Below, in pieces: positions 1-14,794 of a stretch of DNA of 15,247 nt. The stretch comes from a virus. The stretch is taken from the UHGV virus genome UHGV-0194282; one strand, given 5' to 3'. Positions within the stretch are counted from its first letter, which is position 1. The number at the start of each line of letters is the position of its first letter. Both the position numbers and the translations under genes were made by a program. Under the pieces are notes generated by a model that saw only the letters and a program-made list of their open reading frames with translations, was not told the DNA's origin and made no database searches.

Positions 1-330
1 GTTCCACTTCTGAAACTCCCCTTCCGGCGATAACCAGGTAACATTTTCCGGTAACGGACCGAGTTCAGAAATAAATAACTCGTCCCCTGACGCTACGTCA
101 TAAACCGTTTTCCCCCGATGGTCTTCAACGAGATGCCACGATGCCTCATCACTGTTGAAAACAGCCACAAAGCCAGCAGGAATATCTGGTGGTGCAATAT
201 CGGTACTGTTTGCTGGCAGACCTGTATGAGGCGGAATATATGCGTCACCTTCACCAATAAATTCATTAGTTCCGGCCAGCAGATTATAAATTTTTATGGT
301 CCGTGCTTGTTCACTCATTCTGAATGCCAT
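1..330 (-). CDS. tfa: Tail fibre assembly protein Tfa, N-terminal ~110 codons; 3' end lies beyond the window
   Basis: Minus-strand translation from the ATG at 330-328 reads [54 protein letters not shown]..., near-identical to lambda Tfa as I recall it. The start overlaps the stf stop (TAATG). Not in the ORF track because it runs off the window. Confidence 0.88.
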
Positions 331-3300
331 TATGCAAGCCTCACAATATAGTTAAATGCGATGTTTTTGACGGTGTTTTCCGCGTTACCCGCAGCGTTAA
401 CGGTGATGGTGTGTCCATGTGAACCAATCGCAACGGAGTGCGTATGCGCACCAATACCTACAGTATGTGCATGTGCGCCAGAACTTGCTGCAGTACCAGA
501 CAGCGAGTGGGTATGAGCACCTGCTGACTGTGTCTGAATACGTTGATAATACGATCTATAGGAAGAAGTCTCCGGGCTTACTTGATACTGTGAATTCTGG
601 ACATAAGTGAACCCACCGCCATCATAAAATGCTAACGCAGAACCGCCGCCTCCTGGCCAACGAATACCATTACCATGAGTATGAACACCGGCAGACCCCG
701 TAGAGCCACTCAGACTGTGCGTATGCGCCCCGGTGTTATTCGTGGATTTAGTGCCGTAATCAAACGACGATGTGGTTTTCGTCCCCAAATCCGTACTGGA
801 TGCGCTGGCGCTGTGGGTGTGCGATTTTATGCCGTCCTGTTCCTGAGACAATACGGCCCGGCCACTAGCGGGTTTGCCCTTGATTGTCCAGCCGCGCATA
901 TCTGGAATAACACCTGAAGGATAGGCAATAGCCAGTTTCGGATATGCTGCCTTATCAAACGTCTGCCCCTGCATGATCGCATAACCTGCAGGTGGTGTAT
1001 CTGATGGCCACGGCAGCGGAACACCTGGCGGAAACGCTTCAATATTTGCCGAGCCGTCAAATTTTACGCCGTTAATTGTCCTTGCAGTTTGCAATTTGGT
1101 TGCTGTGCTTGCATTACCCGATAAAGATCCAGTGATACCACCACTCGCGTTTAATTTAGTTGCAATTGTAACATTGCCAGTATGGTTACTAATTATAAAC
1201 GGCCTTAAGCTATTGTGCGTACCAAGACTGTTACCCGAATCTGTCAACATAAAATATGTGTTTGATCCATCATTTCGGATAAAGAATCCATAGTTGCCAT
1301 AGGCAATACGCAGACCATTTGCTGACCTTGAAATAACCTCACCAGCAGCAGTTAAACCACCTGAAAGAGTCCCTCCAGTTAATGCCAATGCCCCAATATT
1401 TGAAGGGGTCAATGTGATATTTGCACTACCATCAAATGACACACCGTTAATCGTTCTGGCTGCCTGAAGTTTCGTAGCGGTCGCAGCATTACCTGTAGTG
1501 TTTTGATTACCGGTAGCGTTGACTCCAGGCAAGTTGATATCTGCCGATCCATCAAATGCCACGCCCCCAATCTTACGTGCTGTCTTGATCTTGGTCGCAG
1601 TATCTGCGTTTCCGGTCAAATTACCAGTAACACTACCACCAACTTTTAGTCCATTACCGATGGACACCAACCCTGATCTTAAGTTTATAGAGAATGGTCT
1701 TAATGAACCGATGTCTCCATTTTCCCCCTCCCCTTCATTAGTCGGAATAAGATGAAGATGATCTTCGGAACGCCTAAAAATAAGGCCAAAGGCTTGGTTG
1801 AATATTCGAAGAGCATTTATCGTGCTGATTTTTAACTGCCCTCCCATTGTGTCGCCAGTTTTTTGAACTGAACTATCTTTAACAGTTTTAACTGCCTTTG
1901 GCGTTGCCGCCAGCTTTTCACTGGTGCTGTTTGTTGCACTGCTGAGCTGTACTATCCCCTTTTTCGTCGTGCTCGCATCCTCCAGCGCCACGGCGGATGC
2001 AATATCCTCTGCCCGTTTTGCTGCTGTCTCGGCGCGCGTTGCCGCGGATTCAGCAGCAACTTTGCTCTGAGATGCAGCCGTCGCACTGCCTGCCGCCTCT
2101 GATGCTTTCGCTGTTGCTGTCGTGGCACTACCTTTCGCTGCTGACGCTTGTCTGGTCGCCTCATCTTTTGAAGCAGACGCAGATGATGCCGATGACGCCG
2201 CTGAACTGGCTGACGATGCGGATGCCGCCTTAGAGGAAGCAGCATTGTCTGCTGAAGTCTTTGCATTTGTTTCAGAGGTTTTTGCTGCAGAAGCAGACCT
2301 CGCTGCTGCAGTGGCTTGCTCAGTGGCTTTGCCAGCCTTCGTTGTGGCTGTTGAAGCGGATGATGCGGCGCTTTCTGCCGATTTTCCGGCGGCGGTGGCA
2401 CTGGCTGAGGCCTGCCCGGCACTTGTTGACGCGGCACTGGCAGATAATGCAGCCGCTGTTTTTGAACCTGCCGCAGCTGAGGCGCTCTGTCCCGCTGCTG
2501 TTTCAGAAGACTTAGCGTTCGTCTCGGACGTTTTTGCCGCCTTCGCGGAATTTCCTGCCGCCGTTGCCGAGGAAGCTGCACTACTGGCACTTGATGATGC
2601 ATTCGTTTCTGAAGATTTCGCTGCCTCTTTTGAGGCCGCCGCACCCCGTGCCGAGGTGGCAGCTTCTGACGCCTTCGTGGTCGCTGTGGATGCAGAAGTG
2701 GCTGCCGATTTTTGTGATGCTGCGGCATTCGTTTCTGACGTTTTCGCGGCACTGGCGCTGGTAGCTGCCGCGCTTTTTGATGACTCTGCAGCAGCAGCAC
2801 TTTTTGCTGCTTCACGGGTCTTTGTCGATGCCGTTCCTGCGCTGGAAGACGCTGACTGAGCCGACGACGCGGCCTGTCCGGCTGACGTGCTGGCGGCACG
2901 TGCTGAGGCTGCAGCATCGGTTGCATGAGTTGCCGCCTCGCTGGCTGATGCACTGGCATCGCTGGCTGATTTTTTCGCGGCTGCCGTATTCTGTGCAACC
3001 GCGGAGGCGTTACGTGACACCTCTTCCACCATCTGCTCAAAGCGGCGCAGTGCCTCCGGTCGGACATCATCCTCCGTCATGGCACCGAGAAAATCATTCA
3101 GCGTACCTGATCTGGAACCTTCATAGACGGTAATGGTCCCGGCATGTGAAGGCGGAAAACCTTCAACCAGCAGGGTGACGCTGTACTGGCCATGCTCAAC
3201 ATCCATGCTGTAACGTCCGGCTTCATCCGGATTTTCAGAGGCCACCGTGTTCACCACCACCGTGCTGCTGGTTCGTCTGGCCTTCAGCACAATGGTGCAG

Positions 3301-3356
3301 TTCTGTACTGGTTTTCCTGTGCCATCTTTAAGCACGCCAGAAATTTTTACTGTCAT
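330..3356 (-). CDS. stf: Side tail fibre protein Stf (1008 aa)
   Basis: N-terminus [22 protein letters not shown]... and C-terminus ...[31 protein letters not shown] match lambda Stf. Ala/Ser/Thr-rich central rod, three tail-fibre repeats, His-rich C-terminal motifs. Confidence 0.93.
1040..1625 (-). repeat. Three copies of a ~27-aa phage tail-fibre repeat (GNxxTATKLQxARTINGVxFDGSANI) inside stf
   Basis: Translations of about 1040-1125, 1421-1500 and 1534-1625 give [55 protein letters not shown] and [28 protein letters not shown]. Confidence 0.7.
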
Positions 3357-3375
3357 ACTTTTCCACCAATAAAAA

Positions 3376-3403
3376 AAGCCCGCAGCAGTGACGCCACGGG
3401 CTT
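3376..3403 (-). terminator. Intrinsic terminator-like hairpin between lom and stf
   Basis: 7-bp stem aagcccg (3376-3382) / cgggctt (3397-3403) around a 14-nt loop; on the minus strand the stem is followed by a run of seven U (3371-3377 are A on +). Confidence 0.45.
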
Positions 3404-3507
3404 CAGGACAGTGTAACTTTACGTTTCCTCAAACGCAGTTCACCCCATAAGGTGGATGAACCTGCGTATCATAACAATATTTACAGAAGATAAATCGGCG
3501 TCTGTTG

Positions 3508-4107
3508 TCAGAAACGGTATCCGATACCAACAATAAATGCATCCGTTCGCCAGTCGCCACTACCGGAACCTTCATAAGCAAGGTCAATGGTTACGGATTC
3601 GGTCGGGTTAAACTGCACGCCAGCCCCCCACGCCAGAGACGTGTTGCTGTGGCGACCGTCATCACTTCCGGTCAGCACATCGTGCGTTTTCCCCTTGTTG
3701 TCAGTTACGCGGAGATAATCCCCGGAGAAAGTCGACACACGGCTGTAAGCCACACCCACCATCGCATACGCGCTGAACCATTCATTCACGCGTACAGACG
3801 GCCCCGCCATCACGCTGAACCAGCGGTTACGCACGGAATCTTCATGCCAGCGGGTATCGCTGTAGTGCGTTTTTTGCTCATCCTCAGCATTGGCATAACT
3901 GAAGGACGTAATCAGCCCCAGCGCGTCCGTAAACTCATAACGGTATTTCACGTTAATCCCGTTCAGATTATCGCTGCCGGGAGCGTTCGTACGGGCATGA
4001 AGATACCCCGCGCTCAGTGTGGACTGATGTTCAGACGCCCATGCAGGCGCACCGGATACGGACAGACAGATGGCTGCGGACAAAATGGCTGCACAAACTT
4101 TACGCAT
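3508..4107 (-). CDS. lom: Outer-membrane protein Lom (Ail/Lom family beta-barrel), 199 aa with signal peptide
   Basis: MRKVCAAILSAAICLSVSGAPAWASEHQSTLSAGYLH...IVGIGYRF matches lambda Lom almost along its full length; C-terminal aromatic residue typical of OM beta-barrels. Confidence 0.95.
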   Translation of the reverse strand: MRKVCAAILSAAICLSVSGAPAWASEHQSTLSAGYLHARTNAPGSDNLNGINVKYRYEFTDALGLITSFSYANAEDEQKTHYSDTRWHEDSVRNRWFSVMAGPSVRVNEWFSAYAMVGVAYSRVSTFSGDYLRVTDNKGKTHDVLTGSDDGRHSNTSLAWGAGVQFNPTESVTIDLAYEGSGSGDWRTDAFIVGIGYRF

Positions 4108-4131
4108 AATTACCTCTCGCTTTTCTGCAAT

Positions 4132-4155
4132 AAAAAAGGCGCCATTTCTGGCGCC
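4132..4155 (-). terminator. Intrinsic terminator between J and lom
   Basis: GGCGCC (4138-4143) / GGCGCC (4150-4155) 6-bp GC stem with a 6-nt loop; on the minus strand it is followed by U6 (A6 at 4132-4137 on +). Confidence 0.55.
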
Positions 4156-4174
4156 CGTATTGGGGTTATAAAAT

Positions 4175-7100
4175 TCAGCTAATCGTGATGCCTGCAGTGG
4201 CTTTCTTCATCACAACAACCAGCAAATCGCTGATACTTGCTGTGGGATACCAGCCATTTACCCACCATGCTGATACAGAAAACTCCAGCGTCATGTGGCC
4301 GCGACCAGCAGGCATATCAATAACACCACTGTAAATCAGCGTATTATCCAGCGCGGTACGGTTATAAATTTCAGCACCGTTTTTCCGTACTATCAGGCGG
4401 CATGACGAATAAGTATCGCTGTTCTCCCGCTCATGTCTGGCACCGCTGAAAGCCACCGCCGGAATAACAATCTGCCGGTTAAACGGCTGATCGTCATAAA
4501 CCCTGACGGTAATGGTTCCTGATGGCCAACGCTCCGGTGCACGGGAGTCACGGGGGAAAGCCTTACCCACTGTTTTAACGAGATCGCCTTCAATCTGGTT
4601 TGCAGACAGTTTCCCTCTGATGACACAGTTCTCGTTAATGGTGACATTATTGAGCGTGCCGGTATTCGCCGTGATGGCTCCACTGATATCCGCATTGCGG
4701 GCTGTCAGCCTGCCATCCGGCGTCAGGGAAAACGTAGGAGGATTGCCGGATGACGTGATGCTCACCGCAAACAGTCGCTTCAGGAACACGTCGTTCATGA
4801 ACAGCTGATTCCCCTGCGCCACAAACAGCGGCGTGGTGTTGCCGTTCTCCGGGGTAATCATCGCGATACGGTCCGCCTGCAGCAGAATACTGCTCAGCGT
4901 CTGACCATCAACATCCTCAATCCCCGCGCCAATCCCGGCCACATAGGGAATACCGTTTTTTGTTTTCTGCACCTTCAGCATATACATGGCATTCAGCTCA
5001 TTGCGCGTGTCTGACTGAACCCGCTGGATTTGCTGTATGGTCACGGCCTGGTCACCCAGCTTTTTATCCGTGGTCGAGGTAATTTCACTCCCTTTTTTAT
5101 CCACGTACTGGCGGACCTGTGCTATCTGTCGGGCGTTTTCTGACTGCCCCTGGCTGACAGTCTGTGAGATTTCACTGCTCACCCGGTCCACTTTCTGGCT
5201 CACCTGCGCGATGGCCAGTGTCTGGTCCTCATTCTTTTTCGCAACCAGCTGCGTGAGGCTGTTTTCCGCCTTCCCGATTTTCCGGGTCACTTCTGCGATA
5301 TCCGTGTCCATCCGCTGACGGATGTCTTCTTCCAGTTGCGTGACCTCCGTACGCAGCGCTGAAGCATCAATGCGCTCTTTCAGTGCCTGGCCCAGAAGCG
5401 TCTCATCTATCAGCCCCCGGAAAATTTCCAGATACCCTTCACCATCATTGCTGGGCTGCCCGCTGGCTTCCACAAAAGCAGATTTTCCCACCAGGTTGAC
5501 GCTTCGCACGTAAAACCAGAAATCCGTCCCCGGCTTAATCCGGCTCCCATGGACAGTCCACTGACTGCCGGTCCCCAGATAACGGGCAGATTTTTCCACC
5601 TGTGCTGTGTTCGTGATGCGTTTTTCTGAGAACCAGAATTCAAACTGTACCGTCGGGTCATACACCGCAAGACGCGGGACCGCCGTTATCTGAAAATACC
5701 CCGGCGTCAGCTCAATGGTGGCGGGTTTTGCAGGTGCGTTAATCCTGAACGTGGTGGTGGCCGGTTCGCCCTGCTGGCCATAACTGTTAATCGCCCTGAC
5801 CGTCAGGGTGTATTCCCCCAGTGGCAGGCCGCTGAAACGGTGCTCCGTGTCTGCGGTGCTGGCGGTGCTCACCAGACGGCTGTCTTCTCCGCTTCCGCTG
5901 GTCAGACGCAGACTGAAGCGCACACCCTTCACCACCCGCGGCGTGTCCCATTTCGCCTGTGCCAGATACTGACCGTCAGCTGCACTCACCTCCACCGTCA
6001 GGTGCTGCACTGCCGGTGGGATAACGCTGTTCAGGGTGCCTGACTGCGGCTCAAAGCGGGCCCCGTTATCCACGATGGCTTCTTTTTCAGGTACGTGCTG
6101 CACCGCCGTGATGGCAAAGGTGCCGTCCGTGTTTTCCCGGATGGAGACACAGCGGAACAGGCGACGACGCAGTGACGGCAGGGAGAGTCCCCACACACCG
6201 TATGTCTCCACACCATCCGGCAGGGTGCTGACCTGTATCCGGTCAGGCGCGGGGTGTGCGGTGATGGCCACGCTCGCCGGCTTACCGCTGCCGTTAATCA
6301 GATTAACAGTGGCCGTGCCGGTCTCCGGCAGTGTCACCTCCCGGTCCAGCGTCAGGGTACGGCTGGCGGCATCGATGGACAGGACACGTCCGCCGGTCAT
6401 GGTCCCGGCATAGTCGTTATCACAGATTTCAATGATGTCACCGGGTGTGTGACGCAGCCCCTGTGACCCGAGCGTGAAATCCACCGTCTGCGTTTCCAGC
6501 AGTTCGGTCTTTATCACCCACAGCCCGGCACGGTGGGCCTGACCGCGGCTGGTACAGCCGAACGCGTCCATCTTCAGCAGGTTGCGTCCGTAGCGCAGTA
6601 TGGCTTCCGGGTCTTCCACCAGTTCCGTGGAGGTCTGCCAGCCGTTCTGCGGGTCGGTGTAATTCACCTCCACTGCCGTGTGCCGGTCCTTCAGGGCACT
6701 GAAGCTGTAGCGGAAACCCACGCCGTTATCATCCACCACCACATCGCTGTTGGTGTACGGCCACACCACATCCGACGGACGGTCCTGAACGAACGTCAGC
6801 GTCTGGCCGTTCCATACCGGCATACAGCGCATCGCAGAGCAGAAATCACTGAGAACGTCCCACGCCTTACGCTGTTGTGCCAGGTACGCATTAAAGGTCA
6901 TCCGCGGCTCGGTCCCCCCGAAACCATCCGGGGCCGTCTGGTCGCAGTACTGCCCGATGGCATACAGCGCCCACTTGTCCACATCCGCCGCCCCCAGACG
7001 TTTTCCCATGCCGTAGCGCGGGTGAGTCAGCATGTCCCACAGACACCAGGCCGGGTTGTTGCTGTATGCCGGTTTCAGGCTGCCGTCCCAGATACCACTG

Positions 7101-7867
7101 TACGTGCGTTTTTCCGGGTCATAGTTTGACGGCACCTGGATGATGCGACCGCGGATATGGTAGTTCACCGTCATCTGCTGGCCGCCGAACTGCTCCGCAT
7201 CCACCTGCAGCCCCACAATGGCCGTGTTCGGGTAGCACTGTTTCACATCGATGATTTCGGTGTATGACGACCACAGCGTCTTATTCTGCAGCTGGTCCGT
7301 GGTGCTGTCCGCCGTCTCCCTGACCATCCGGATGTTAAAGGGCCGGGGAGGCAGATTATCCAGAATCACCGAGGCCAGGAACTGCGAGGTGGTCTTGCCG
7401 TTAATGGTGACATCCTTTTCCGTCACCCAGCGGCCATTACGCTGTAACTGAATCAGAATCCGGACAGAGGAAGGATTACGGTCGCCCTTTGACGTGGTCT
7501 GCACCAGTGACTGCACCCCGAAGGTAACCCGCAGGCGGTCAATGTTCGCGGACGTAATGGTGCGCGTCACCGGTTTTGCCTTCGTCACTTCCACGCCCAG
7601 TCCGGTTTCAGCACCGGAGGACTCAAAGCCTTCCGGTGGTGTCTGCTCCTGCTCCCCGGCGCGCCAGACCGCCGTCACACCGTGTATCACGGGATTACCG
7701 TCCGTGTCCGTCAGCGGGGTTTTGTTCACCAGGATACTCTGCAGTCCCTTCACCGGACCTTCTATCGGTCCCTCACCAATCGCATCAATCACGCTCATCA
7801 TCTGCGTGGATTTGAGATTATCCTTCGCCTCACGAGGCGTGTGTGCCTTACCGCCACCTTTTCCCAT
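4175..7867 (-). CDS. J: Tail tip / host-specificity protein J (1230 aa)
   Basis: [22 protein letters not shown]... and long colinear similarity to lambda gpJ. Shine-Dalgarno GGGGAAGG upstream of the ATG. About 100 aa longer than lambda J, with an expanded coiled-coil segment and a divergent C-terminal ~150 aa. Confidence 0.95.
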
Positions 7868-7970
7868 ACAGCCTTCCCCTGAATAAATTAACCGCCACTT
7901 GCCATTCCGTACAGAAGTCGGATATCCTTCGCCCGAAAAGCATGAAACACATTTCTGCCATGCTAAAGAG

Positions 7971-8008
7971 AAACCCCGGTATCAGCAGATACCGGGGTTT
8001 TCTTTCAT
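7971..8008. terminator. Bidirectional terminator-like hairpin in the I-J spacer
   Basis: 13-bp stem aaaccccggtatc (7971-7983) / gataccggggttt (7988-8000) with a 4-nt loop; T-rich on the + side (ttttctttc) and U-rich on the minus side. Confidence 0.45.
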
Positions 8009-8072
8009 GCCCACCGATAATCCTGTTGGTTAAAACCGGTAATGGCATAAAAATTCTGAATATCTTCACATT

Positions 8073-8100
8073 TTCACAAACTGACTGTGGCGCGTATAAT
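8073..8100 (+). promoter_or_regulatory. Sigma70-type promoter candidate: TTCACA, 16-bp spacer, TATAAT
   Basis: -35 TTCACA at 8073-8078 and a perfect -10 TATAAT at 8095-8100, pointing rightward into a terminator about 70 bp downstream. Confidence 0.45.
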
Positions 8101-8106
8101 TTCTCT

Positions 8107-8203
8107 GCGTTAATTTTTTTGTCGTGATATAAGAATAATTCCTTACACTTAATCTTCGTAACTCTCCCGCAGTTCCTGTCCGCGATCACTGCGGGATTTT
8201 TTT
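8107..8203 (+). ncRNA. Candidate prophage small RNA (~97 nt) antisense-oriented to the tail operon, in the I-J spacer
   Basis: Bounded by the promoter at 8073-8100 and the intrinsic terminator at 8165-8203. No ATG or plausible ORF inside. AU-rich body with A-R-N-like stretches (AAGAAUAAU), then terminal hairpin and U-tract. Confidence 0.4.
8165..8203 (+). terminator. Intrinsic terminator, + strand only
   Basis: 9-bp stem tcccgcagt (8165-8173) / actgcggga (8188-8196) followed by TTTTTTT (8197-8203). The reverse complement has no U-tract after the stem. Confidence 0.55.
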
Positions 8204-8210
8204 ATTCTTT

Positions 8211-8891
8211 TTACCCCTGCCGCCCGATAACCACGACCTTTCCGCCCCCGCCTTCATCACGGGTGCTGATGTCCTGGGATATACGGCGGGAGCCAACCAG
8301 CATTTCCCCGTAAGGCACCGGCATCGGGTTCCCCTGGGCAATCATGTTATCCAGTGAGGAAAAGTACGTGTTCTGTCTGCCGTTATCCGTTGCGCGGTAA
8401 TCCGGTGTTTTTGCCTTCGGGGCCAGCATCTGGGCCACACCGCCCAGAATCATGCTGGCTCCAAGTGAAAACAGCATCGTGGTGGCAGAAAAACCACCGG
8501 CTGCCAGGGCTGAACCCCATAACGCCATTGATGCCCCGGCAGTGAAGAAAGAGCCCACGATGGCTGCCGCCCCCAGCACAATCTGCAGTCCACCCTTTCC
8601 GACCCCGGCCAGTCGCGGCACAATGTGGATGACCGTTCCCTCACCCAGCTGTTCGTGAAGACGGGCGTACACCGCCTCCGGTGCCGTGTCATCACCGGCA
8701 ATACGTATCTGGTACCAGCCTTCGTTCATCTGACGGCGAAAGCCCGGCATCTGCATCGACAGGGCGCGAATGGCTTCCGCTGCCGTGTTCACATACAGGC
8801 TGAGGCGGCGGCCAAATCGTTGTAAATCCCCGTGAAGGCAGATGCGTGCCAGTGGCGGTGACGCCAGACTGAATGCGTTCGTCGTTGCCAT
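8211..8891 (-). CDS. I: Tail assembly protein I (226 aa)
   Basis: MATTNAFSLASPPLARICLHGDLQRFGRR...QNTYFSSLDNMIAQGN matches lambda gpI; overlaps the upstream K fragment as in lambda. Confidence 0.93.
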   Translation of the reverse strand: MATTNAFSLASPPLARICLHGDLQRFGRRLSLYVNTAAEAIRALSMQMPGFRRQMNEGWYQIRIAGDDTAPEAVYARLHEQLGEGTVIHIVPRLAGVGKGGLQIVLGAAAIVGSFFTAGASMALWGSALAAGGFSATTMLFSLGASMILGGVAQMLAPKAKTPDYRATDNGRQNTYFSSLDNMIAQGNPMPVPYGEMLVGSRRISQDISTRDEGGGGKVVVIGRQG

Positions 8892-9057
8892 TTTTCGGAA
8901 TACCTCTCCCGTTTACTCAGTTGTTCAGGCAGATGGTGAAGCAGCTCACCGTTGCCGCAGTAAATGGCGGCATGGTTCGGTACCGAAGCACCAAAGCAGC
9001 ACAGCAGAATATCGCCCGCCTGTGCAGAGGACAGGGGCACCCGGTAAAAGCCGGTGC
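8789..9057 (-). pseudogene. K: Tail protein K, C-terminal ~88-codon fragment (5' part deleted)
   Basis: ...TGFYRVPLSSAQAGDILLCCFGASVPNHAAIYCGNGELLHHLPEQLSKRERYSEKWQRRTHSVWRHRHWHASAFTGIYNDLAAASACM matches only the C-terminal part of lambda gpK (~246 aa); the N-terminal part with the metalloprotease motif is absent. Confidence 0.85.
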
Positions 9058-9270
9058 CTGTGCCGGTAAAAACACCTCAATATGCAGTGTGGCCCGCCAG
9101 GTATCTGCATCCAGCTCTTCACCGGTATACTCTGCATCCGTCAGATAAACCGCGATCGCAGGAAAATCCTCTTCGTCAAAAACAACGGGGCGACCATCAA
9201 ACAGCGTCGCCCCGTGTTCATGCTGCTCGAGTGCATCCAGCACTGCAGCACGGATATCAGTGTGTTTCAT
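9058..9270 (-). pseudogene. U: Tail protein U, N-terminal ~72-codon fragment fused out of frame to the K remnant
   Basis: MKHTDIRAAVLDALEQHEHGATLFDGRPVVFDEEDFPAIAVYLTDAEYTGEELDADTWRATLHIEVFLPAQ matches lambda gpU residues 1-72, then the frame runs into K sequence. ATGA overlap with the Z stop as in lambda. Confidence 0.85.
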
Positions 9271-9800
9271 CGTTTTATCGCAATCCTCAGTTGTTGTTTC
9301 AGCGCGGATGCCAGTTCTCCGGGCAGGCGTTCACGCCGGATACGGTCAACATTCTCATCAAACGCCTGTTTCAGTGGGGCCGCCATCGGGATTTTCACCA
9401 CATCAATAGGGTAACGGTTTTTCCCGGCCACACGCTGCATGACATGCCAGCGACCGTTTTTTAATCGCTGAATGAATGCCCGCTGATACCGATGCTGACC
9501 GGCTTTAAGTATGCTGTTCGGACGACGGCCCAGCATCCTGATCCCCAGCTTAATCACTGGAAGATCACCGCGGTTAACGATAATTTTTGCGTTCGGATTT
9601 CTGACCGTCGCCCGTTTCAGTCTGGACCGTTCCTTAACCAGTTTCCGGCGTACCTTTGTCTCCCGGGCAACCTGTGATGAAGACTGATTAATCGCCGTTG
9701 TGGCCACGCGGTTAATCGTCATTGCTGAAGCCGCCGGAATGGCGTTTTTACGAACCCGGCTCAGATTATCAATCGCCTGATCAAGCCCTTTTATCGCCAT
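9267..9800 (-). CDS. Z: Tail protein Z (177 aa)
   Basis: MAIKGLDQAIDNLSRVRKNAIPAASAMTINRVATTAINQSSSQVARETKVRRKLVKER...RIRRERLPGELASALKQQLRIAIKR matches lambda gpZ; Shine-Dalgarno GGGGGA upstream of the ATG. Confidence 0.9.
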   Translation of the reverse strand: MAIKGLDQAIDNLSRVRKNAIPAASAMTINRVATTAINQSSSQVARETKVRRKLVKERSRLKRATVRNPNAKIIVNRGDLPVIKLGIRMLGRRPNSILKAGQHRYQRAFIQRLKNGRWHVMQRVAGKNRYPIDVVKIPMAAPLKQAFDENVDRIRRERLPGELASALKQQLRIAIKR

Positions 9801-9815
9801 AATTTCCCCCTGCGT

Positions 9816-11411
9816 TTATCGTCGCCGGTTAACAGCGGGTGGTTGCCCACGGTTGTCCGTCCCCACTTCACACAGATAAACGCCCCGCTGATTGCGGGTT
9901 TTCGGCATGGTGATCACCGGCTTGCCATAGACAGACGCGCCTTTTACCGGCAGCACACGGAAAACACCGTGTTTTTTTGACCTCTGGTAGACGATTTCAC
10001 CATCGATCCCCCCGGTGTCCCAGCAGACACGGGAAATGGTCATTTCGGTGCCATCCGCATGGCGGTATTTTTTGTTGATCGCCGCATCCACACGTAACAG
10101 CGTCTCTTCCTCATCAGGACGCCCCATAATGATGATTTTATCCACCAGAAAAGCTTCCTCTCCCGGTGCCCATCCCCAGACATACATCTCAAAACGGTTT
10201 CGCTGCGAGTCAATGCCCGCCGTCAGATAAACCACCCGGGCAGGCACCGCCGCCGTGTAACGCACAACCTTATCCATCAGCACCTGGTGATCGAGTTTTT
10301 CGCCCACGGCCTCTTCCCAGGTCTCGCCCAGCGTGGTGTTCACAAAGGTTTTCAGGCCGTTGGGATCTTTCAGTGCATCCAGCCAGTCATAGACTATCTG
10401 TACCCAGGTGGTGAACGGACTGTACGCTGTCCAGATATGGAACGTGATGGAGCGCGGCGGCGGAATTTCATTATCCGCGGCGCTGAAAAACGTCAGACCG
10501 TCACGGGTCCACATCCCCGTGTTTTCACAGATCCACCGCCCGTTGCTCTGGTCAAGCTCAGACTGATGGATCACGCAGCCATGATGTTCACAGAGGTAGA
10601 AAACGCTTTCGGGGCTGTCCTTCTCCCATTTAAGGCCAAAAGGCGTGGATTCATCGCCAAATTTCAGATACTGCTCCTCCCCACAGTGTGGGCAGGGCAC
10701 ATAAAAACGCATGAAATGCGCCGACTCGTTGGCCGCTTTTTCGATCTGGCAGGTGCCTTTGATTTTAGGCGTCGAGCCGCGAATGGATTTGGGCCATACA
10801 GAGCCCTCAATACGTTTATCCCCAAGCAGGGTTGGCGAACCCTCTTTTTCGACATCCGGTTCGAACGAGGAAAGTTCGTCATAGCAGACCACGTCCACGG
10901 ATTTTTCACGGTAGTTTTTGGCGGCAGCGCCGCCCAGGCACCAGAAACCCACACCCGATGAAAAGCGTTTCAGCGTGAGGGTATTGTCACGATGTTTACG
11001 CCCCAGCCATGGAAAAAGGTCTTTCAGACATGGCACATCCCGAATCGTCGCCTCCACGTGAGACTTCATAAAATCTTCAGCGGCAGAATCCGTGGGCTGA
11101 AAAAGCAGACTGTTTCGGGATTTATGCTCAATAAAATACCCGACCACCCCCAGCAACATCTTTGTATAGCCAACACGGGCAGATTTAATCAGATTAACAG
11201 TCCGGATCTGATCATTCCCCATGCTGTTCATGATGGCGATCTGGAACGGCAGCGTTTTCCATTCTCCCTCACCATATGAAGATTCTTTAGGCAGATAATA
11301 ATTTTGATCAGCCCATTCAACTGGCGTCACCGGCAATGCCCTTATCAGGGGCTGTAATGCTGTTGTGACAGCACTCATCATATTATTCAGTTGTTGCTCT
11401 GATATATTCAT
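9816..11411 (-). CDS. A: Terminase large subunit gpA, C-terminally truncated (531 aa; roughly 120 C-terminal residues replaced by 12 unrelated codons)
   Basis: From the internal ATG at 11411 (MNISEQQLNN...VEWADQNYYLPKES...) colinear with lambda gpA up to ...GVYLCEVGTD, then NRGQPPAVNRRR and stop, 15 bp before Z. The ORF-track start at 11468 is an upstream extension. Overlaps the Nu1-like gene by 29 nt, as in lambda. Confidence 0.85.
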   Translation of the reverse strand: MNISEQQLNNMMSAVTTALQPLIRALPVTPVEWADQNYYLPKESSYGEGEWKTLPFQIAIMNSMGNDQIRTVNLIKSARVGYTKMLLGVVGYFIEHKSRNSLLFQPTDSAAEDFMKSHVEATIRDVPCLKDLFPWLGRKHRDNTLTLKRFSSGVGFWCLGGAAAKNYREKSVDVVCYDELSSFEPDVEKEGSPTLLGDKRIEGSVWPKSIRGSTPKIKGTCQIEKAANESAHFMRFYVPCPHCGEEQYLKFGDESTPFGLKWEKDSPESVFYLCEHHGCVIHQSELDQSNGRWICENTGMWTRDGLTFFSAADNEIPPPRSITFHIWTAYSPFTTWVQIVYDWLDALKDPNGLKTFVNTTLGETWEEAVGEKLDHQVLMDKVVRYTAAVPARVVYLTAGIDSQRNRFEMYVWGWAPGEEAFLVDKIIIMGRPDEEETLLRVDAAINKKYRHADGTEMTISRVCWDTGGIDGEIVYQRSKKHGVFRVLPVKGASVYGKPVITMPKTRNQRGVYLCEVGTDNRGQPPAVNRRR

Positions 11412-11892
11412 CGAGTAAATCCGGTAATTTATCCCCCGCCCGCGCACACTGATTTGCCCCCTTCGCAATAAGGGTTTTCAGATGGTCAAGATGGCGCGGT
11501 GTTAAATCAGGAAACTGTCGCTGCATGGATAAAGGGATGGAATCAAGCGTACTGGATAACGCCATTGCCAGCTTGCTGAGGGCAAAAATACAGAACCCGG
11601 TATCAATAAGTTTTCCTTTTGACACCTCATTTTTTAACTGCTGTGTAACAGCCTGTTCTGCTGTCAGTTCCCATCTGGCAATAAGCAATTTCTCCTCATA
11701 GTCGTCTTCGCTATCGCCATCAGGCACATCGTTTTTACTTCTTCTCAGATACGATATGTAAAAATCGCGCCAGGCATCCAGATCCAGTTGCCCTCGCTTA
11801 TTCGATATCGGGGCACCCGGCAATTTCTGCAATCTGCGAAGCTGGCGATCGGTCAGACTTAAATGCCTGGCAACTTCAGTCTGCGTAGCCAC
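11383..11892 (-). CDS. nu1: Terminase small subunit (Nu1-like; non-lambda N-terminal DNA-binding domain), GTG start
   Basis: C-terminal half (...TGFCIFALSKLAMALSSTLDSIPLSMQRQFPDLTPRHLDHLK...LLDEYI) matches lambda Nu1; the N-terminal ~60 aa differ from lambda. GTG at 11892 preceded by GAGGTGAGGA. Sits next to cos. Confidence 0.85.
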   Translation of the reverse strand: MATQTEVARHLSLTDRQLRRLQKLPGAPISNKRGQLDLDAWRDFYISYLRRSKNDVPDGDSEDDYEEKLLIARWELTAEQAVTQQLKNEVSKGKLIDTGFCIFALSKLAMALSSTLDSIPLSMQRQFPDLTPRHLDHLKTLIAKGANQCARAGDKLPDLLDEYIRATTE

Positions 11893-11939
11893 TCCTCACC
11901 TCGCAAAAACTCTCACTTCACAATCACAACAAAACCGGT

Positions 11940-12038
11940 CATGTCCGGCTTACATGTCTATTTTTTGTGCATGTCCGGTTCACAGAAGACCTCTTTTTTT
12001 ATTTTTCATATAGTTAACTTGAAGAGAAACCGGACATG
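11940..12038. repeat. cosB-like array: three copies of CATGTCCGGyTy (two direct, one inverted) around an AT-rich spacer
   Basis: catgtccgg at 11940-11948 and 11970-11978, inverted ccggacatg at 12030-12038; AT-rich 11990-12029 between the second and third copies (IHF-site-like position). The layout cosN-R3-I1-R2-R1-Nu1 mirrors lambda cosB but the repeat sequence is not lambda's. Confidence 0.6.
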
Positions 12039-12075
12039 GTTCCCGGAAAATTTTCATAAATAGCGAAAACCCGCG

Positions 12076-12087
12076 AGGTCGCCGCCC
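12076..12087 (-). other. cosN cohesive-end site (lambda-type 12-nt GGGCGGCGACCT on the minus strand)
   Basis: Window 12054-12120 is the reverse complement of the lambda cos junction as I recall it (ggaaaattttcataaatagcgaaaacccgcgaggtcgccgccccgtaac...gatcaccggaaaggacccg). Confidence 0.85.
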
Positions 12088-12310
12088 CGTAACGGTCTGG
12101 ATCACCGGAAAGGACCCGCCAACGACTTTCGCGTGCAGGCATTAAAAATTTTGCAGTTCCATGCCTAGTTGAAACCTCGATTTCTATAACATCCAATTTT
12201 GTAAATTTAGATATAGCTCAACTTTTCCCAATGTTTTCAAGTGTATAAAAACAATTGGCGTTACGCCATAACACTATACTTAGGATAAGTAAAGATTTTA
12301 AGGAGTTTTA

Positions 12311-13378
12311 ATGAGTCAACATCAATATTATCCACAGCTGAAATGGAAGCCTGCTGAATATGAATCTCTGATGCTTTTAGATCAAACTACGCTCTCTGGT
12401 TTTACTCCGATCATTACCATTCCAGACATAGACTGGGATTATGAAAACGAATGCTACAAGAAGAGTTTGAGTTCTTACTTATCTGACTTCGGTATTAACC
12501 TTGCGGCATCCTGGAAAGCCAATCGTCCTGTTTTGCTGGATGTTAAATATTTAGATAAACATGGTTCGAGCCGCCATCATCCTCTAGATATGTGTATCCA
12601 AGATGCTAGAGTAAATGGTAAGGAAATTATCCCTGTTGTTTCTCCCGCATATTCAACAAACTATATACATGCTGTTCAACGCAACTTAATCAATGGGCTC
12701 GCTATATCTATCACCCCCCAGACATGGCACCAATTCACAAGTCTGGTTAACCACTTAAATATTCATCCTAGTTTAATTGATGTAATCATTGATTTTGGAG
12801 ATATTCAAAACGCAACTGATAGTTTAAAACAACAAGCATTAAGCATGGTCAACACATTATCAGGCCAAGCTCCGTGGAGAAACTTGATTTTATCTTCAAC
12901 CGCATACCCAGCATCACAGGCAGGGATACCGCAACATCAAGTTCATCATATTCCGCGCCATGAATACGATCTTTGGATGTACGTAGTACAGAATTTTAGC
13001 AATGGAAGAACGCCAAGTTTTAGTGATTATCCCACCGCTAGCTCTACCATTACGAGCGTAGACCCACGCTTCATGTCTCAGTATGTCTCAGTGAGATATT
13101 CGAACGATACCTCATGGATCTTTGTAAAAGGTACCGCAGTTAAAGGAAATGGATGGGGCCAAACTAAAAACTTATGTACTACCCTTGTTAGTTCGCCAGA
13201 GTATCAAGTCTTTGGTTCCAAATTTAGTTGGGGGGATGATTACATTTACCAAAGATCATTAGGCGCTAACAAATCTGGCGGCTCTAAAGAATGGCGTAAA
13301 GTTGCACATACGCACCATATTACGTTAGTCGTGAGACAGCTTTATTGGTTGGCGCAGACTCAGCCTGCCAAGCCTTAA
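12311..13378 (+). CDS. Hypothetical protein, 355 aa, low-GC cargo gene; function unknown
   Basis: Long + strand ORF with a strong Shine-Dalgarno (AAGGAG, 6 nt before the ATG) and AT-rich upstream region with -10-like hexamers. GC content clearly below the flanking phage genes. No catalytic motif I can name. Confidence 0.8.
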   Translation: MSQHQYYPQLKWKPAEYESLMLLDQTTLSGFTPIITIPDIDWDYENECYKKSLSSYLSDFGINLAASWKANRPVLLDVKYLDKHGSSRHHPLDMCIQDARVNGKEIIPVVSPAYSTNYIHAVQRNLINGLAISITPQTWHQFTSLVNHLNIHPSLIDVIIDFGDIQNATDSLKQQALSMVNTLSGQAPWRNLILSSTAYPASQAGIPQHQVHHIPRHEYDLWMYVVQNFSNGRTPSFSDYPTASSTITSVDPRFMSQYVSVRYSNDTSWIFVKGTAVKGNGWGQTKNLCTTLVSSPEYQVFGSKFSWGDDYIYQRSLGANKSGGSKEWRKVAHTHHITLVVRQLYWLAQTQPAKP

Positions 13379-13940
13379 CTTTCCAGCCTACGCGTTTCTT
13401 TAAGGCTGTTCTGACTTCAAGCCTGAGATTCGCTATTGGAATATTTTCCGCAATAATATTCCATAACTCAAATCGGGGCTTGCTTTTGATTCCTTTGGAA
13501 TAGCCCCATCGTTCAAGTACGTCGATACATTCATCTTTCCAAAGCAATTGAGCGAGCATCAATGTGTCATGGTTTCGATTAAGCTTTTCTCCACGCATGT
13601 GCTTTATAAGAATGGCGCCTTTTGGCCCAACAGAAACCGTTTTAACGCCCCACCAACCTGGGATTAACTTTAATGCTCCCTCAAGATGTTTCTCAGCTAC
13701 GACAAGAGTAACCTTGTCCATTACAGAAGAATAATGCTTGATTTGAAGAGGCAAACGCTCCAAAGAGTCATATTCACTTTTGAGCTCGTACCCGTGTATA
13801 ACACCATTTATTACAGCAATGTCTGCTCTACTGGCGCCAAGGGATATGGAAAATTCATCGACCACAAGGCAGTCTGGATCTAAATGCGATTCTTTCAAAA
13901 GCTTATGATGCACCGCGAACCTAACATCTTGATCTTTCAT
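13320..13940 (-). CDS. Hypothetical protein, 206 aa, with a PD-(D/E)xK nuclease-like motif
   Basis: Minus-strand ORF with AAGGAG 5 nt before the ATG. The N-terminal region has acidic residue E29 (VVDEF), D40 (RADIAV) and E52-x-K54 (GYELK), the spacing typical of PD-(D/E)xK nucleases. Convergent with the 355-aa gene; 3' ends overlap by 59 bp. Low GC. Confidence 0.8.
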   Translation of the reverse strand: MKDQDVRFAVHHKLLKESHLDPDCLVVDEFSISLGASRADIAVINGVIHGYELKSEYDSLERLPLQIKHYSSVMDKVTLVVAEKHLEGALKLIPGWWGVKTVSVGPKGAILIKHMRGEKLNRNHDTLMLAQLLWKDECIDVLERWGYSKGIKSKPRFELWNIIAENIPIANLRLEVRTALKKRVGWKVKAWQAESAPTNKAVSRLT

Positions 13941-14290
13941 GACTTCTCCTTACTCCCTCCGTTATTGAATTATAGCGCACTGCATTTTACTGCATTTGAG
14001 AGATTTGACCACTTCAATCACAAAATGCTTATCTGCAGCAACAAGATTCATAGCCATACGACTATGGTGATTACCTTTTGTCTGGAAAACTGACCATTCC
14101 ACGAAGATCAGATAGGTCTATAGAATCTTGGTTTGTCATAGCGTTCGCCTTACTTTGAGATGAACCTTTGCTGCATAGGAGATCAGCCCGTCAAGGCTCA
14201 CCAGCACTAACTGACTACTCAAAGGCTCATTCCAAAGGGTTTGGTTCGACGTGGTTGAGTGCACTGCGGTGCGCGGTGAAATACCTGTAC

Positions 14291-14317
14291 AAAAATGCCC
14301 CGCATCTGCGAGGCATT
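14291..14317 (-). terminator. Intrinsic terminator ~40 bp downstream of Rz/Rz1
   Basis: Stem aatgcc (14294-14299) / ggcatt (14312-14317) with a further internal cgca/tgcg pairing; on the minus strand it is followed by U5 (A5 at 14291-14295 on +). Confidence 0.55.
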
Positions 14318-14356
14318 TTCCTGAAAGTCACGTATTAAATTTCAGTGAAATTAAAA

Positions 14357-14794
14357 TTATTTTAAGCACTGCGTCCTGATGTACTCCTGCAGGTAGTTGA
14401 CCTGCGCGGTTATCTTGTCGATTCCACTTCGGAGACGGTAATAATTGAGTTCAGCATCTGCTGTAAGTCTTGGGCTTTCTCCATTGCCCATGCCGCTGGC
14501 TCCGGTCGTTGACTTTGCACAGGTAGCGGCGACTTGCAGGCGCTTACGCCCAGCAGAAACATCAGCACGGAGGCTTTCGATAGTCGCGTTAGCATCAGCA
14601 AGCTCCTTTGTATATCTGGCATCGAGTTCTGCTACGTCACGTTGACGCTTCTGCATATCAGCGATTGTGGATGTGGCTTTATCGCGCTGCTCTTTGTAGG
14701 TTATGGCGTTATCACGGTAATGATTCAGCCCCAGACTAAGCGCACCACAGGCCACCAGCAGGGCAATGATGACCACGCACAGTACGCGGTTCAT
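14357..14794 (-). CDS. Rz: Spanin inner-membrane subunit Rz (145 aa)
   Basis: MNRVLCVVIIALLVACGALSLGLNHYRDNAITYKEQRDK...DVAELDARYTKELADA...GRKRL matches lambda Rz; N-terminal transmembrane segment then coiled coil. Confidence 0.93.
   Translation of the reverse strand: MNRVLCVVIIALLVACGALSLGLNHYRDNAITYKEQRDKATSTIADMQKRQRDVAELDARYTKELADANATIESLRADVSAGRKRLQVAATCAKSTTGASGMGNGESPRLTADAELNYYRLRSGIDKITAQVNYLQEYIRTQCLK
14410..14595 (-). CDS. Rz1: Spanin outer-membrane lipoprotein Rz1 (~61 aa), embedded in the +1 frame of Rz
   Basis: From the internal ATG at 14595 (AAGGAG 8 nt upstream): MLTRLSKASVLMFLLGVSAC, a signal peptide with a lipobox, then a proline-rich mature region KSPLPVQSQRPEPAAW. The ORF track shows the longer 14410-14622 frame. 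Confidence 0.8.
   Translation of the reverse strand: MLTRLSKASVLMFLLGVSACKSPLPVQSQRPEPAAWAMEKAQDLQQMLNSIITVSEVESTR

Follow-up and report, generated by a model that had tools for sequence, protein, structure and literature searches.

A putative anti-phage cassette of convergent Beta and cII-family genes in the Rz–cos slot of a lambdoid prophage

A convergent gene pair in low-GC prophage cargo

We analyzed a 15,247-nucleotide stretch of DNA from the virus genome UHGV-0194282 (the whole stretch is hereafter called the window), a lambdoid prophage given in the orientation that places its late genes on the minus strand. Between its cos site and its lysis genes lie two genes, one encoding a Beta-family protein of 355 amino acids (aa) and the other a cII/sce7726-family protein of 206 aa. 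We consider that this segment is probably a moron-type cargo cassette encoding an anti-phage module. A first-pass annotation, made from the sequence alone, had described two convergent genes with strong ribosome-binding sites (RBSs) in an insert of low GC content, and these points were confirmed: the genes run toward each other, AAGGAG precedes the ATG of both by 4–5 nt, and the GC content of positions 12140–14290 is 41.0%, compared with 53.2% in the remaining window. The features of the cassette are as follows.

12126–12310, plus strand: AT-rich, cassette-specific leader of the Beta-family gene, with the RBS AAGGAG at 12300–12305
12311–13378, plus strand: Beta-family gene, 355 aa
13320–13378, strand not applicable: antiparallel coding overlap of 59 bp, a length of 2 mod 3
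13320–13940, minus strand: cII/sce7726-family nuclease gene, 206 aa
13941–14135, minus strand: upstream region of the nuclease gene, with its RBS at 13945–13950 and a promoter-like TGGTCA-16-TAAAAT at 14011–13984

The Beta start codon lies just 220 bp away from cos, and the GC content of positions 12091–12310 is 36.8%. The cross-genus homology of the cassette runs from 12298 to 14025/14046, covering both genes and ~90 bp 5΄ of the nuclease gene; it therefore includes the promoter-like site of the nuclease and excludes the Beta leader. In a consensus scan, promoter-like sites were rarer than in shuffled sequence, and a scan of positions 11800–14500 against Rfam (E-values up to 1) returned no non-coding RNA match. 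Just 5΄ of the Beta start, a terminator-like hairpin at 12256–12268 on the minus strand, consisting of TGGCGTAACGCCA followed by a T-rich tail, is directed leftward; transcripts running antisense across the entire Beta gene could be ended by it short of cos.

Compared with their Klebsiella and Edwardsiella homologues, both genes displayed ratios of nonsynonymous to synonymous substitution rates (dN/dS) of ~0.04–0.08, which indicate strong purifying selection. These values, together with the full-length family matches described below, ruled out the possibility that the genes are pseudogenes or chance open reading frames (ORFs).

Families and predicted structures of the two proteins

Profile hidden Markov model searches assigned both proteins to curated families, as models of Beta_protein, of sce7726 and of the PADLOC beta and cll proteins were all matched. 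The 206-aa protein matched the NCBIfam sce7726 family (NF033832) with an E-value of 2e-54 and 184.1 bits, the curated cut-off being 70 bits, and the PADLOC cll model at 4e-31. The Pfam family PF26915 (Phage_P4_cII) was assigned through precomputed labels on homologues, and this label was carried by the 99%-identical cluster P0001 and by 120 of the 120 listed homologues. Direct comparison with cII of phage P4 gave 27% identity (E 1e-18). The first-pass annotation had read a PD-(D/E)xK nuclease signature in residues E29, D40 and E52-x-K54, and conservation supports this reading: the four residues were invariant in 53 aligned homologues, including P4 cII, and a set of 75 sequences drawn from many phyla retained them at a frequency of 95% or more. 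In an AlphaFold2 model (pLDDT 89.8), the protein contains a restriction-endonuclease-like α/β core and a disordered tail (residues 192–206). By motif and predicted fold, the 206-aa protein is thus a PD-(D/E)xK nuclease, and apart from a small helical C-terminal part, the predicted structure contains no obvious DNA-recognition domain. The core fold and catalytic motif are shared with MmcB-like/SPO1766 (PDB 3dnx), NucS and the nuclease domain of Can2; however, MmcB-like/SPO1766 and other small PD-(D/E)xK nucleases have no detectable sequence similarity to the 206-aa protein and are found with another partner and in another gene context.

For the 355-aa protein, the first-pass annotation had named no motif, and had only hinted, from its size and N-terminus, at the Beta family of P4. 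The former statement did not hold and the latter was borne out, since the Pfam domain Beta_protein (PF14350) was matched over its full length (profile positions 1–342 of 342; E 8e-56; 190.4 bits, with a gathering score of 27 bits). Among the PADLOC models, PD-Lambda-2_C was matched at 4e-32, within the C-terminal half only, and beta at 3.5e-10. Window Beta and P4 Beta, each of 355 aa, are 22% identical. The Beta family is large; grouping its members at 50% identity gives about 4300 clusters.

According to its AlphaFold2 model (pLDDT 94.6), Beta is predicted to be a divergent TIM barrel that is extended by helices at its C-terminus. In a Foldseek search with this model, the TM-score was at most 0.42 and no named TIM-barrel superfamily was specifically matched; among 46 Beta members, no convincing Pfam family other than Beta_protein appeared, the weak matches being scattered noise. 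Sequence searches of the PDB yielded no solved relative of Beta or of the 206-aa nuclease. The matches to DpdA and TGT did not stand out, dozens of unrelated TIM barrels being matched at least as well. The residues Y6, E16, D77, D161, R216, D239, D309 and H336 of Beta are conserved down to ~20% identity, and as a set they resemble an active site or a ligand-binding site more than a surface that only binds protein.

The two genes are paired across phyla and overlap at a fixed junction

We scanned one genome per species with an alignment of the nuclease, obtained 389 confirmed hits, and analyzed the best 80 loci. These loci span Proteobacteria, Firmicutes, Myxococcota, Bacteroidota, Acidobacteriota, Melainabacteria-like lineages and several candidate phyla. 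A Beta-family ORF lies convergently beside the cII-family gene in 77 of the 80 loci, and two of the three exceptions stop at a contig edge. The pairing was equally apparent from the Beta side: for seven Beta homologues looked up (25–77% identity), a convergent downstream gene was found in every case, labelled as cII family in six; the downstream gene of the seventh is unlabelled and is broken by the contig end. Moreover, all viral contigs with a complete Beta gene (41/41) carry a convergent cII-family gene, and the pairwise identities of the Beta and cII-family proteins are correlated across loci (r = 0.82). Beta and cII-family genes are therefore near-obligately paired across phyla.

The sole sampled locus away from a contig end at which a cII-family gene lacks a convergent Beta is found in Xenorhabdus koppenhoeferi (L015, 5001–5567). 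Here the nuclease may naturally occur alone, or the module may have decayed.

The 3΄ ends of the genes overlap in 75 of the 77 pairs, by 11–158 bp (median 56 bp), and every overlap length is 2 mod 3. In 61 of 70 loci, the codon for a conserved nuclease Trp (W186 in the window) lies exactly 1 nt from the codon, on the other strand, for a conserved Beta Leu (L344). In the enterobacterial subfamily to which the window cassette belongs, this distance is 40 nt, corresponding to a 13-codon (39-nt) insertion that keeps the phase. As the junction is frozen in this manner, the overlap was never lost in these lineages and no terminator can be accommodated between the genes; the two mRNAs would therefore be complementary at their 3΄ ends. 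P4 is an outlier in this respect: its beta and cII genes are 27 bp apart with an annotated terminator between them, whereas the window genes overlap by 59 bp. The annotation of strain 1532MA (hit H15), which carries the identical cassette, places an IS1 element between its Beta gene and its nuclease gene.

Relationship with gop-beta-cII, PD-lambda-2 and sce7726-type pairs

The gop-beta-cII system of P4 protects against lambda and P1 (Rousset 2022, PMC9122126). P4 Gop is toxic without Beta, which acts as the antidote to this membrane protein (PMC9122126), and cell killing by gop-beta-cII is triggered by orf184, an accessory gene of lambda-family phages (bioRxiv 10.1101/2023.04.06.535777). The genes of P4 are arranged in the order gop (plus strand), beta (plus strand, 355 aa) and cII (minus strand), directly beside cos; as beta and cII are on opposite strands, they are convergent in P4 as well. 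The window locus resembles gop-beta-cII in that a Beta homologue of equal length and a homologous cII-family nuclease are encoded by convergent genes directly beside cos in an E. coli mobile element, and in that the catalytic E/D/ExK residues are kept in P4 cII. However, identity is limited to the values given above for Beta and cII, P4 cII has a C-terminal extension of ~70 aa that the window nuclease lacks, the P4 system is hosted by a P4-like satellite and the window pair by a lambdoid prophage, and gop was not found in the window, where tblastn with P4 Gop gave nothing below an E-value of 3.5.

In PD-lambda-2, which consists of a HigB-like protein (A), an Xre-peptidase (B) and a Beta-like protein (C), the C protein is needed for defence and not for toxin neutralization (Vassallo 2022, PMC9519451). 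Window Beta matches the C model, as described above; however, the published system has no nuclease component, and the window contains no A or B gene. ORFs of the HigB-like and Xre-peptidase kinds were absent from the window, although they were readily recognized at other loci, and none of the six small flanking ORFs matched a PADLOC model.

By gene content, the window locus thus falls outside gop-beta-cII, for want of gop, and outside PD-lambda-2, for want of A and B. The convergent Beta and cII homologues by which gop-beta-cII is recognized are nevertheless present. The locus is the same thing as the sce7725/sce7726-type pair (NF033832, together with a RefSeq 'beta family protein'), from which nothing structural distinguishes it: in Sorangium (L033), and at the majority of the 77 loci, an sce7726-family gene and a lone Beta_protein gene converge just as they do in the window. 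The window cassette stands apart from the wider group in its membership of the enterobacterial subfamily, its 39-nt junction insertion and the longer disordered tail of its nuclease.

The 77 loci also show how the pair relates to the larger systems. HigB-like and Xre-peptidase genes lie directly 5΄ of Beta in 14–16 of these loci, sampled via the nuclease, and match PD-Lambda-2_A at 1e-40 and PD-Lambda-2_B at 2e-150. Because the A-B-C operon is followed in these cases by a convergent, overlapping cII-family gene (L044 5001–8122, L052, L060, L064, L067–L070, L077, L079 and L081–L085), PD-lambda-2-type loci share the Beta–cII core. Clustering of the neighbouring genes of the 77 loci revealed no universally conserved third gene, with lineage-specific additions only, and a tightly linked third gene is missing from approximately 55–60 loci, among them every close relative of the window cassette in the enterobacteria. 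Most commonly, therefore, the pair stands alone, and from these comparisons gop-beta-cII and PD-lambda-2 appear to have been elaborated from it.

Other additions were seen at individual loci. At L073 (6602–7087), L088 (3149–3649) and L058 (2211–2750), a gene tightly coupled upstream of Beta encodes a small protein in which coiled coil flanks a single hydrophobic helix; these proteins are Gop-like in architecture and unlike Gop in sequence. At L133 (1513–3112), two unannotated genes encoding 328 and 203 aa are tightly coupled upstream of Beta.

The first-pass annotation had proposed the pair as a candidate for a novel, uncharacterized system. This proposal did not survive the comparison, because curated models exist for both families and the pair already bears RefSeq names in 127 E. 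coli genomes. On sequence grounds, the pair is instead a gop-less two-gene variant and represents the core that is conserved within a kind of system described before. What may be new is the recognition that the Beta–cII core is common to both published systems, as well as the frozen overlapping junction.

The relationship with P4 also raises the possibility of an addiction module resembling a toxin–antitoxin pair, in which the nuclease would be the toxin and Beta its antidote, stabilizing a prophage or island with no dedicated anti-phage function. P4 Beta neutralizes a toxin, and the authors of the published work described gop/beta as toxin–antitoxin-like (PMC9122126, PMC9519451); moreover, the two genes are obligately linked and overlap, they occur on many mobile elements beside integrases, and they survive in the decayed prophage described below. 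On the other hand, both related systems that have been tested, gop-beta-cII and PD-lambda-2, do protect against phage, convergent genes with separate promoters differ from the usual co-transcribed type II pair, and known small, labile antitoxins do not resemble a TIM barrel of 355 aa in which polar residues are conserved. We therefore regard an addiction module as unlikely, and retain the anti-phage module as the preferred interpretation.

Distribution and genomic neighbours

The cassette is annotated in RefSeq as 'beta family protein' and 'sce7726 family protein'. It was found in 127 of 5426 complete E. coli genomes (2%), in every case with at least 99% identity and on the chromosome. The 'phages' collection contained no near-identical DNA; the cassette was seen in bacterial prophages and IMG/VR contigs only. 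In E. coli, the identical cassette always lies between Rz (79–100% identity) and Nu1 (34–99% identity); as the flanking genes are this diverse around an identical cassette, the latter moves among mosaic lambdoid prophages. In E. coli 14EC017 (L001, 3939–5800), which carries the identical cassette, an IS3 element splits the small terminase gene.

Elsewhere, the pair adjoins type I restriction-modification (RM) systems, MvaI/BcnI RM systems, GmrSD, SMODS together with S_4TM (CBASS-like), or integrases. The role in defence that had been suggested from the context alone is made plausible by the homology with P4 gop-beta-cII (PMC9122126) and by these RM, GmrSD and CBASS-like neighbours, even though the claim of novelty attached to it fell.

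The same neighbours bear on a different possibility, namely that the genes form an RM-like pair in which Beta modifies DNA or the nucleotide pool to mark self, and incoming DNA that lacks the mark, or bears a specific one, is cut directly by the nuclease without cell death. Convergent gene pairs are common among RM systems, and the pair adjoins such systems in islands; the conserved acidic, Arg and His residues of Beta suggest catalysis, and the nuclease fold matches that of many restriction enzymes. Nevertheless, the matches of Beta to DpdA/TGT do not stand out from those to unrelated barrels, and the nuclease has no obvious DNA-recognition domain beyond its small helical C-terminal part. In addition, P4 Beta is the antidote to a membrane protein and PD-lambda-2 acts as an abortive infection system, neither of which suits a modification enzyme. 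This RM-like function is accordingly decidedly improbable in our view.

A working model and the evidence against it

Within the anti-phage interpretation, the most likely division of roles is that the nuclease is the effector and Beta the sensor or regulator, and we hold this assignment less firmly than the defensive function itself. A lysogen would express both genes, each from its own promoter. Beta would either restrain the nuclease or be required to switch it on, and might itself sense infection or make or destroy a signal. A cue from the infecting phage, which in the P4 system is the lambda-family accessory protein orf184, would alter the state of Beta; the nuclease would then cut DNA and abort the infection, thereby shielding the lysogenic population and the prophage from competitors. 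The complementary 3΄ ends of the Beta and nuclease mRNAs would perhaps couple the expression levels of the two genes. Other lineages may have recruited extra toxins to the core, namely the membrane protein Gop or the pair of HigB-like and Xre-peptidase proteins.

A bolder version of this model, which we put forward tentatively, is that Beta–cII could be a self-sufficient, ancient immune module and the common core of gop-beta-cII and PD-lambda-2. Beta would then be a TIM-barrel sensor or enzyme of a new kind that controls the nuclease, and other toxins in the derived systems, and the overlap would provide antisense mRNA coupling within the switch.

Several observations weigh against the anti-phage interpretation or against the roles assigned within it. 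The toxin demonstrated in P4 is Gop, which was not found in the window, and toxicity of cII is undocumented. In the literature that we searched, there was no experiment on the two-gene form and no mechanism for any member of the family. The published PD-lambda-2 clone (ECOR42) reaches only 396 bp past gene C, a distance that could not hold a complete convergent nuclease gene; should ECOR42 carry a convergent cII gene at this position, the clone defended without an intact copy of it. A consensus scan of the Beta leader (12126–12310) detected no sigma-70 site on the plus strand. Finally, because its conserved residues are active-site-like, Beta is perhaps an enzyme and not a passive regulator.

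Proteins of the Beta family belong to two experimentally validated anti-phage systems. The present results reframe these two systems, as Beta is joined tail-to-tail with a nuclease gene in every sampled lineage, and Gop or the HigB-like and Xre-peptidase proteins look optional. With the 2-kb, two-gene cassette of E. coli, the questions of what Beta senses or catalyzes and whether the nuclease is the effector can be put in their simplest setting; being compact, common and tractable, the cassette provides an entry into this defence family. If defence-system finders require gop or the A and B genes, the common two-gene form would be missed.

Boundaries of the insert and state of the prophage

The first-pass annotation had located the insert between the terminator after Rz/Rz1 and cos, and the following features of the phage backbone, all outside the module, agree with this placement.

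12066–12090, strand not applicable: lambda-type cosN, with the cohesive end at 12076–12087; left limit of the cargo slot
14291–14316, minus strand: intrinsic terminator after Rz/Rz1; right limit of the cargo slot
14357–14794, minus strand: Rz (PHROG Rz-like spanin, E 3e-69), with an embedded ORF for an Rz1-like lipoprotein

Positions 12066–12090, which read GGGCGGCGACCTCGCGGGTTTTCGC on the reverse complement, correspond to a lambda-type cosN. The terminator reads AUGCCUCGC-AGAU-GCGGGGCAU on the minus strand and is followed by UUUUUG; because its stem holds a G-U pair, it is specific to that strand. The small and large terminase genes lie to the left of the insert beyond cosN, so that the immediate flanks are lysis and terminase genes, and not the tail genes that had been named as flanks.

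We determined the limits of the insert by comparison with the 5426 complete E. coli genomes. The backbone at 11893–12125 matches prophage DNA in 4462 of them, and beyond ~12125 matches were found in module-bearing genomes only. Positions 13945–14135 are likewise confined to module-bearing genomes, and the right-hand backbone (14136–14360) matches lambdoid prophages with other cargo in the slot at ~86%. Because backbone homology stops at ~12125 and restarts at ~14136, the cargo corresponds to ~12126–14135. This span is slightly narrower than the 12140–14290 proposed earlier.

The insert is horizontally acquired cargo in the slot equivalent to that of bor, as had been supposed. In lambda, bor sits in the Rz–cos slot. 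The window pair resembles bor and other morons in its position, in having its own promoter and terminator logic and in a GC content below that of the backbone, but its proteins and functions are unrelated to theirs.

This position also suggests a role in the life cycle of the phage itself, either in lysogeny control, as the historical name cII implies, or in DNA processing or recombination near cos. The cassette lies beside cos in P4 and in the window alike, the nuclease gene is co-directional with the late operon, and some databases label homologues as 'regulatory protein' or 'MmcB-like DNA repair protein'. We consider such a role very unlikely, however, since the pair occurs in non-phage islands of many phyla with no phage genes nearby, the identical cassette is found in prophages with unrelated terminases, and the gop-beta-cII region is non-essential in P4 (PMC9122126). 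Furthermore, the cassette is kept in a prophage that is no longer able to make particles.

The latter point follows from the state of the element, which is defective over 330–11892: the genes for the portal, protease and head and most of those for the tail shaft are absent, the large terminase breaks off at about residue 530, the tail-terminator gene is truncated and joined to the tail-assembly gene I, and the profile match of J begins only at profile position 263. Despite these defects, the Beta–cII cassette has been kept intact, and Lom and the gene for a 1008-aa side tail fibre are also still intact.

Between the cargo and the terminator, positions 14136–14290 are ~86% identical to a stretch beside or within a gene annotated as 'Rha family transcriptional regulator' in other E. 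coli prophages. Judging from this similarity, it is probably what is left of a previous cargo that occupied this slot.

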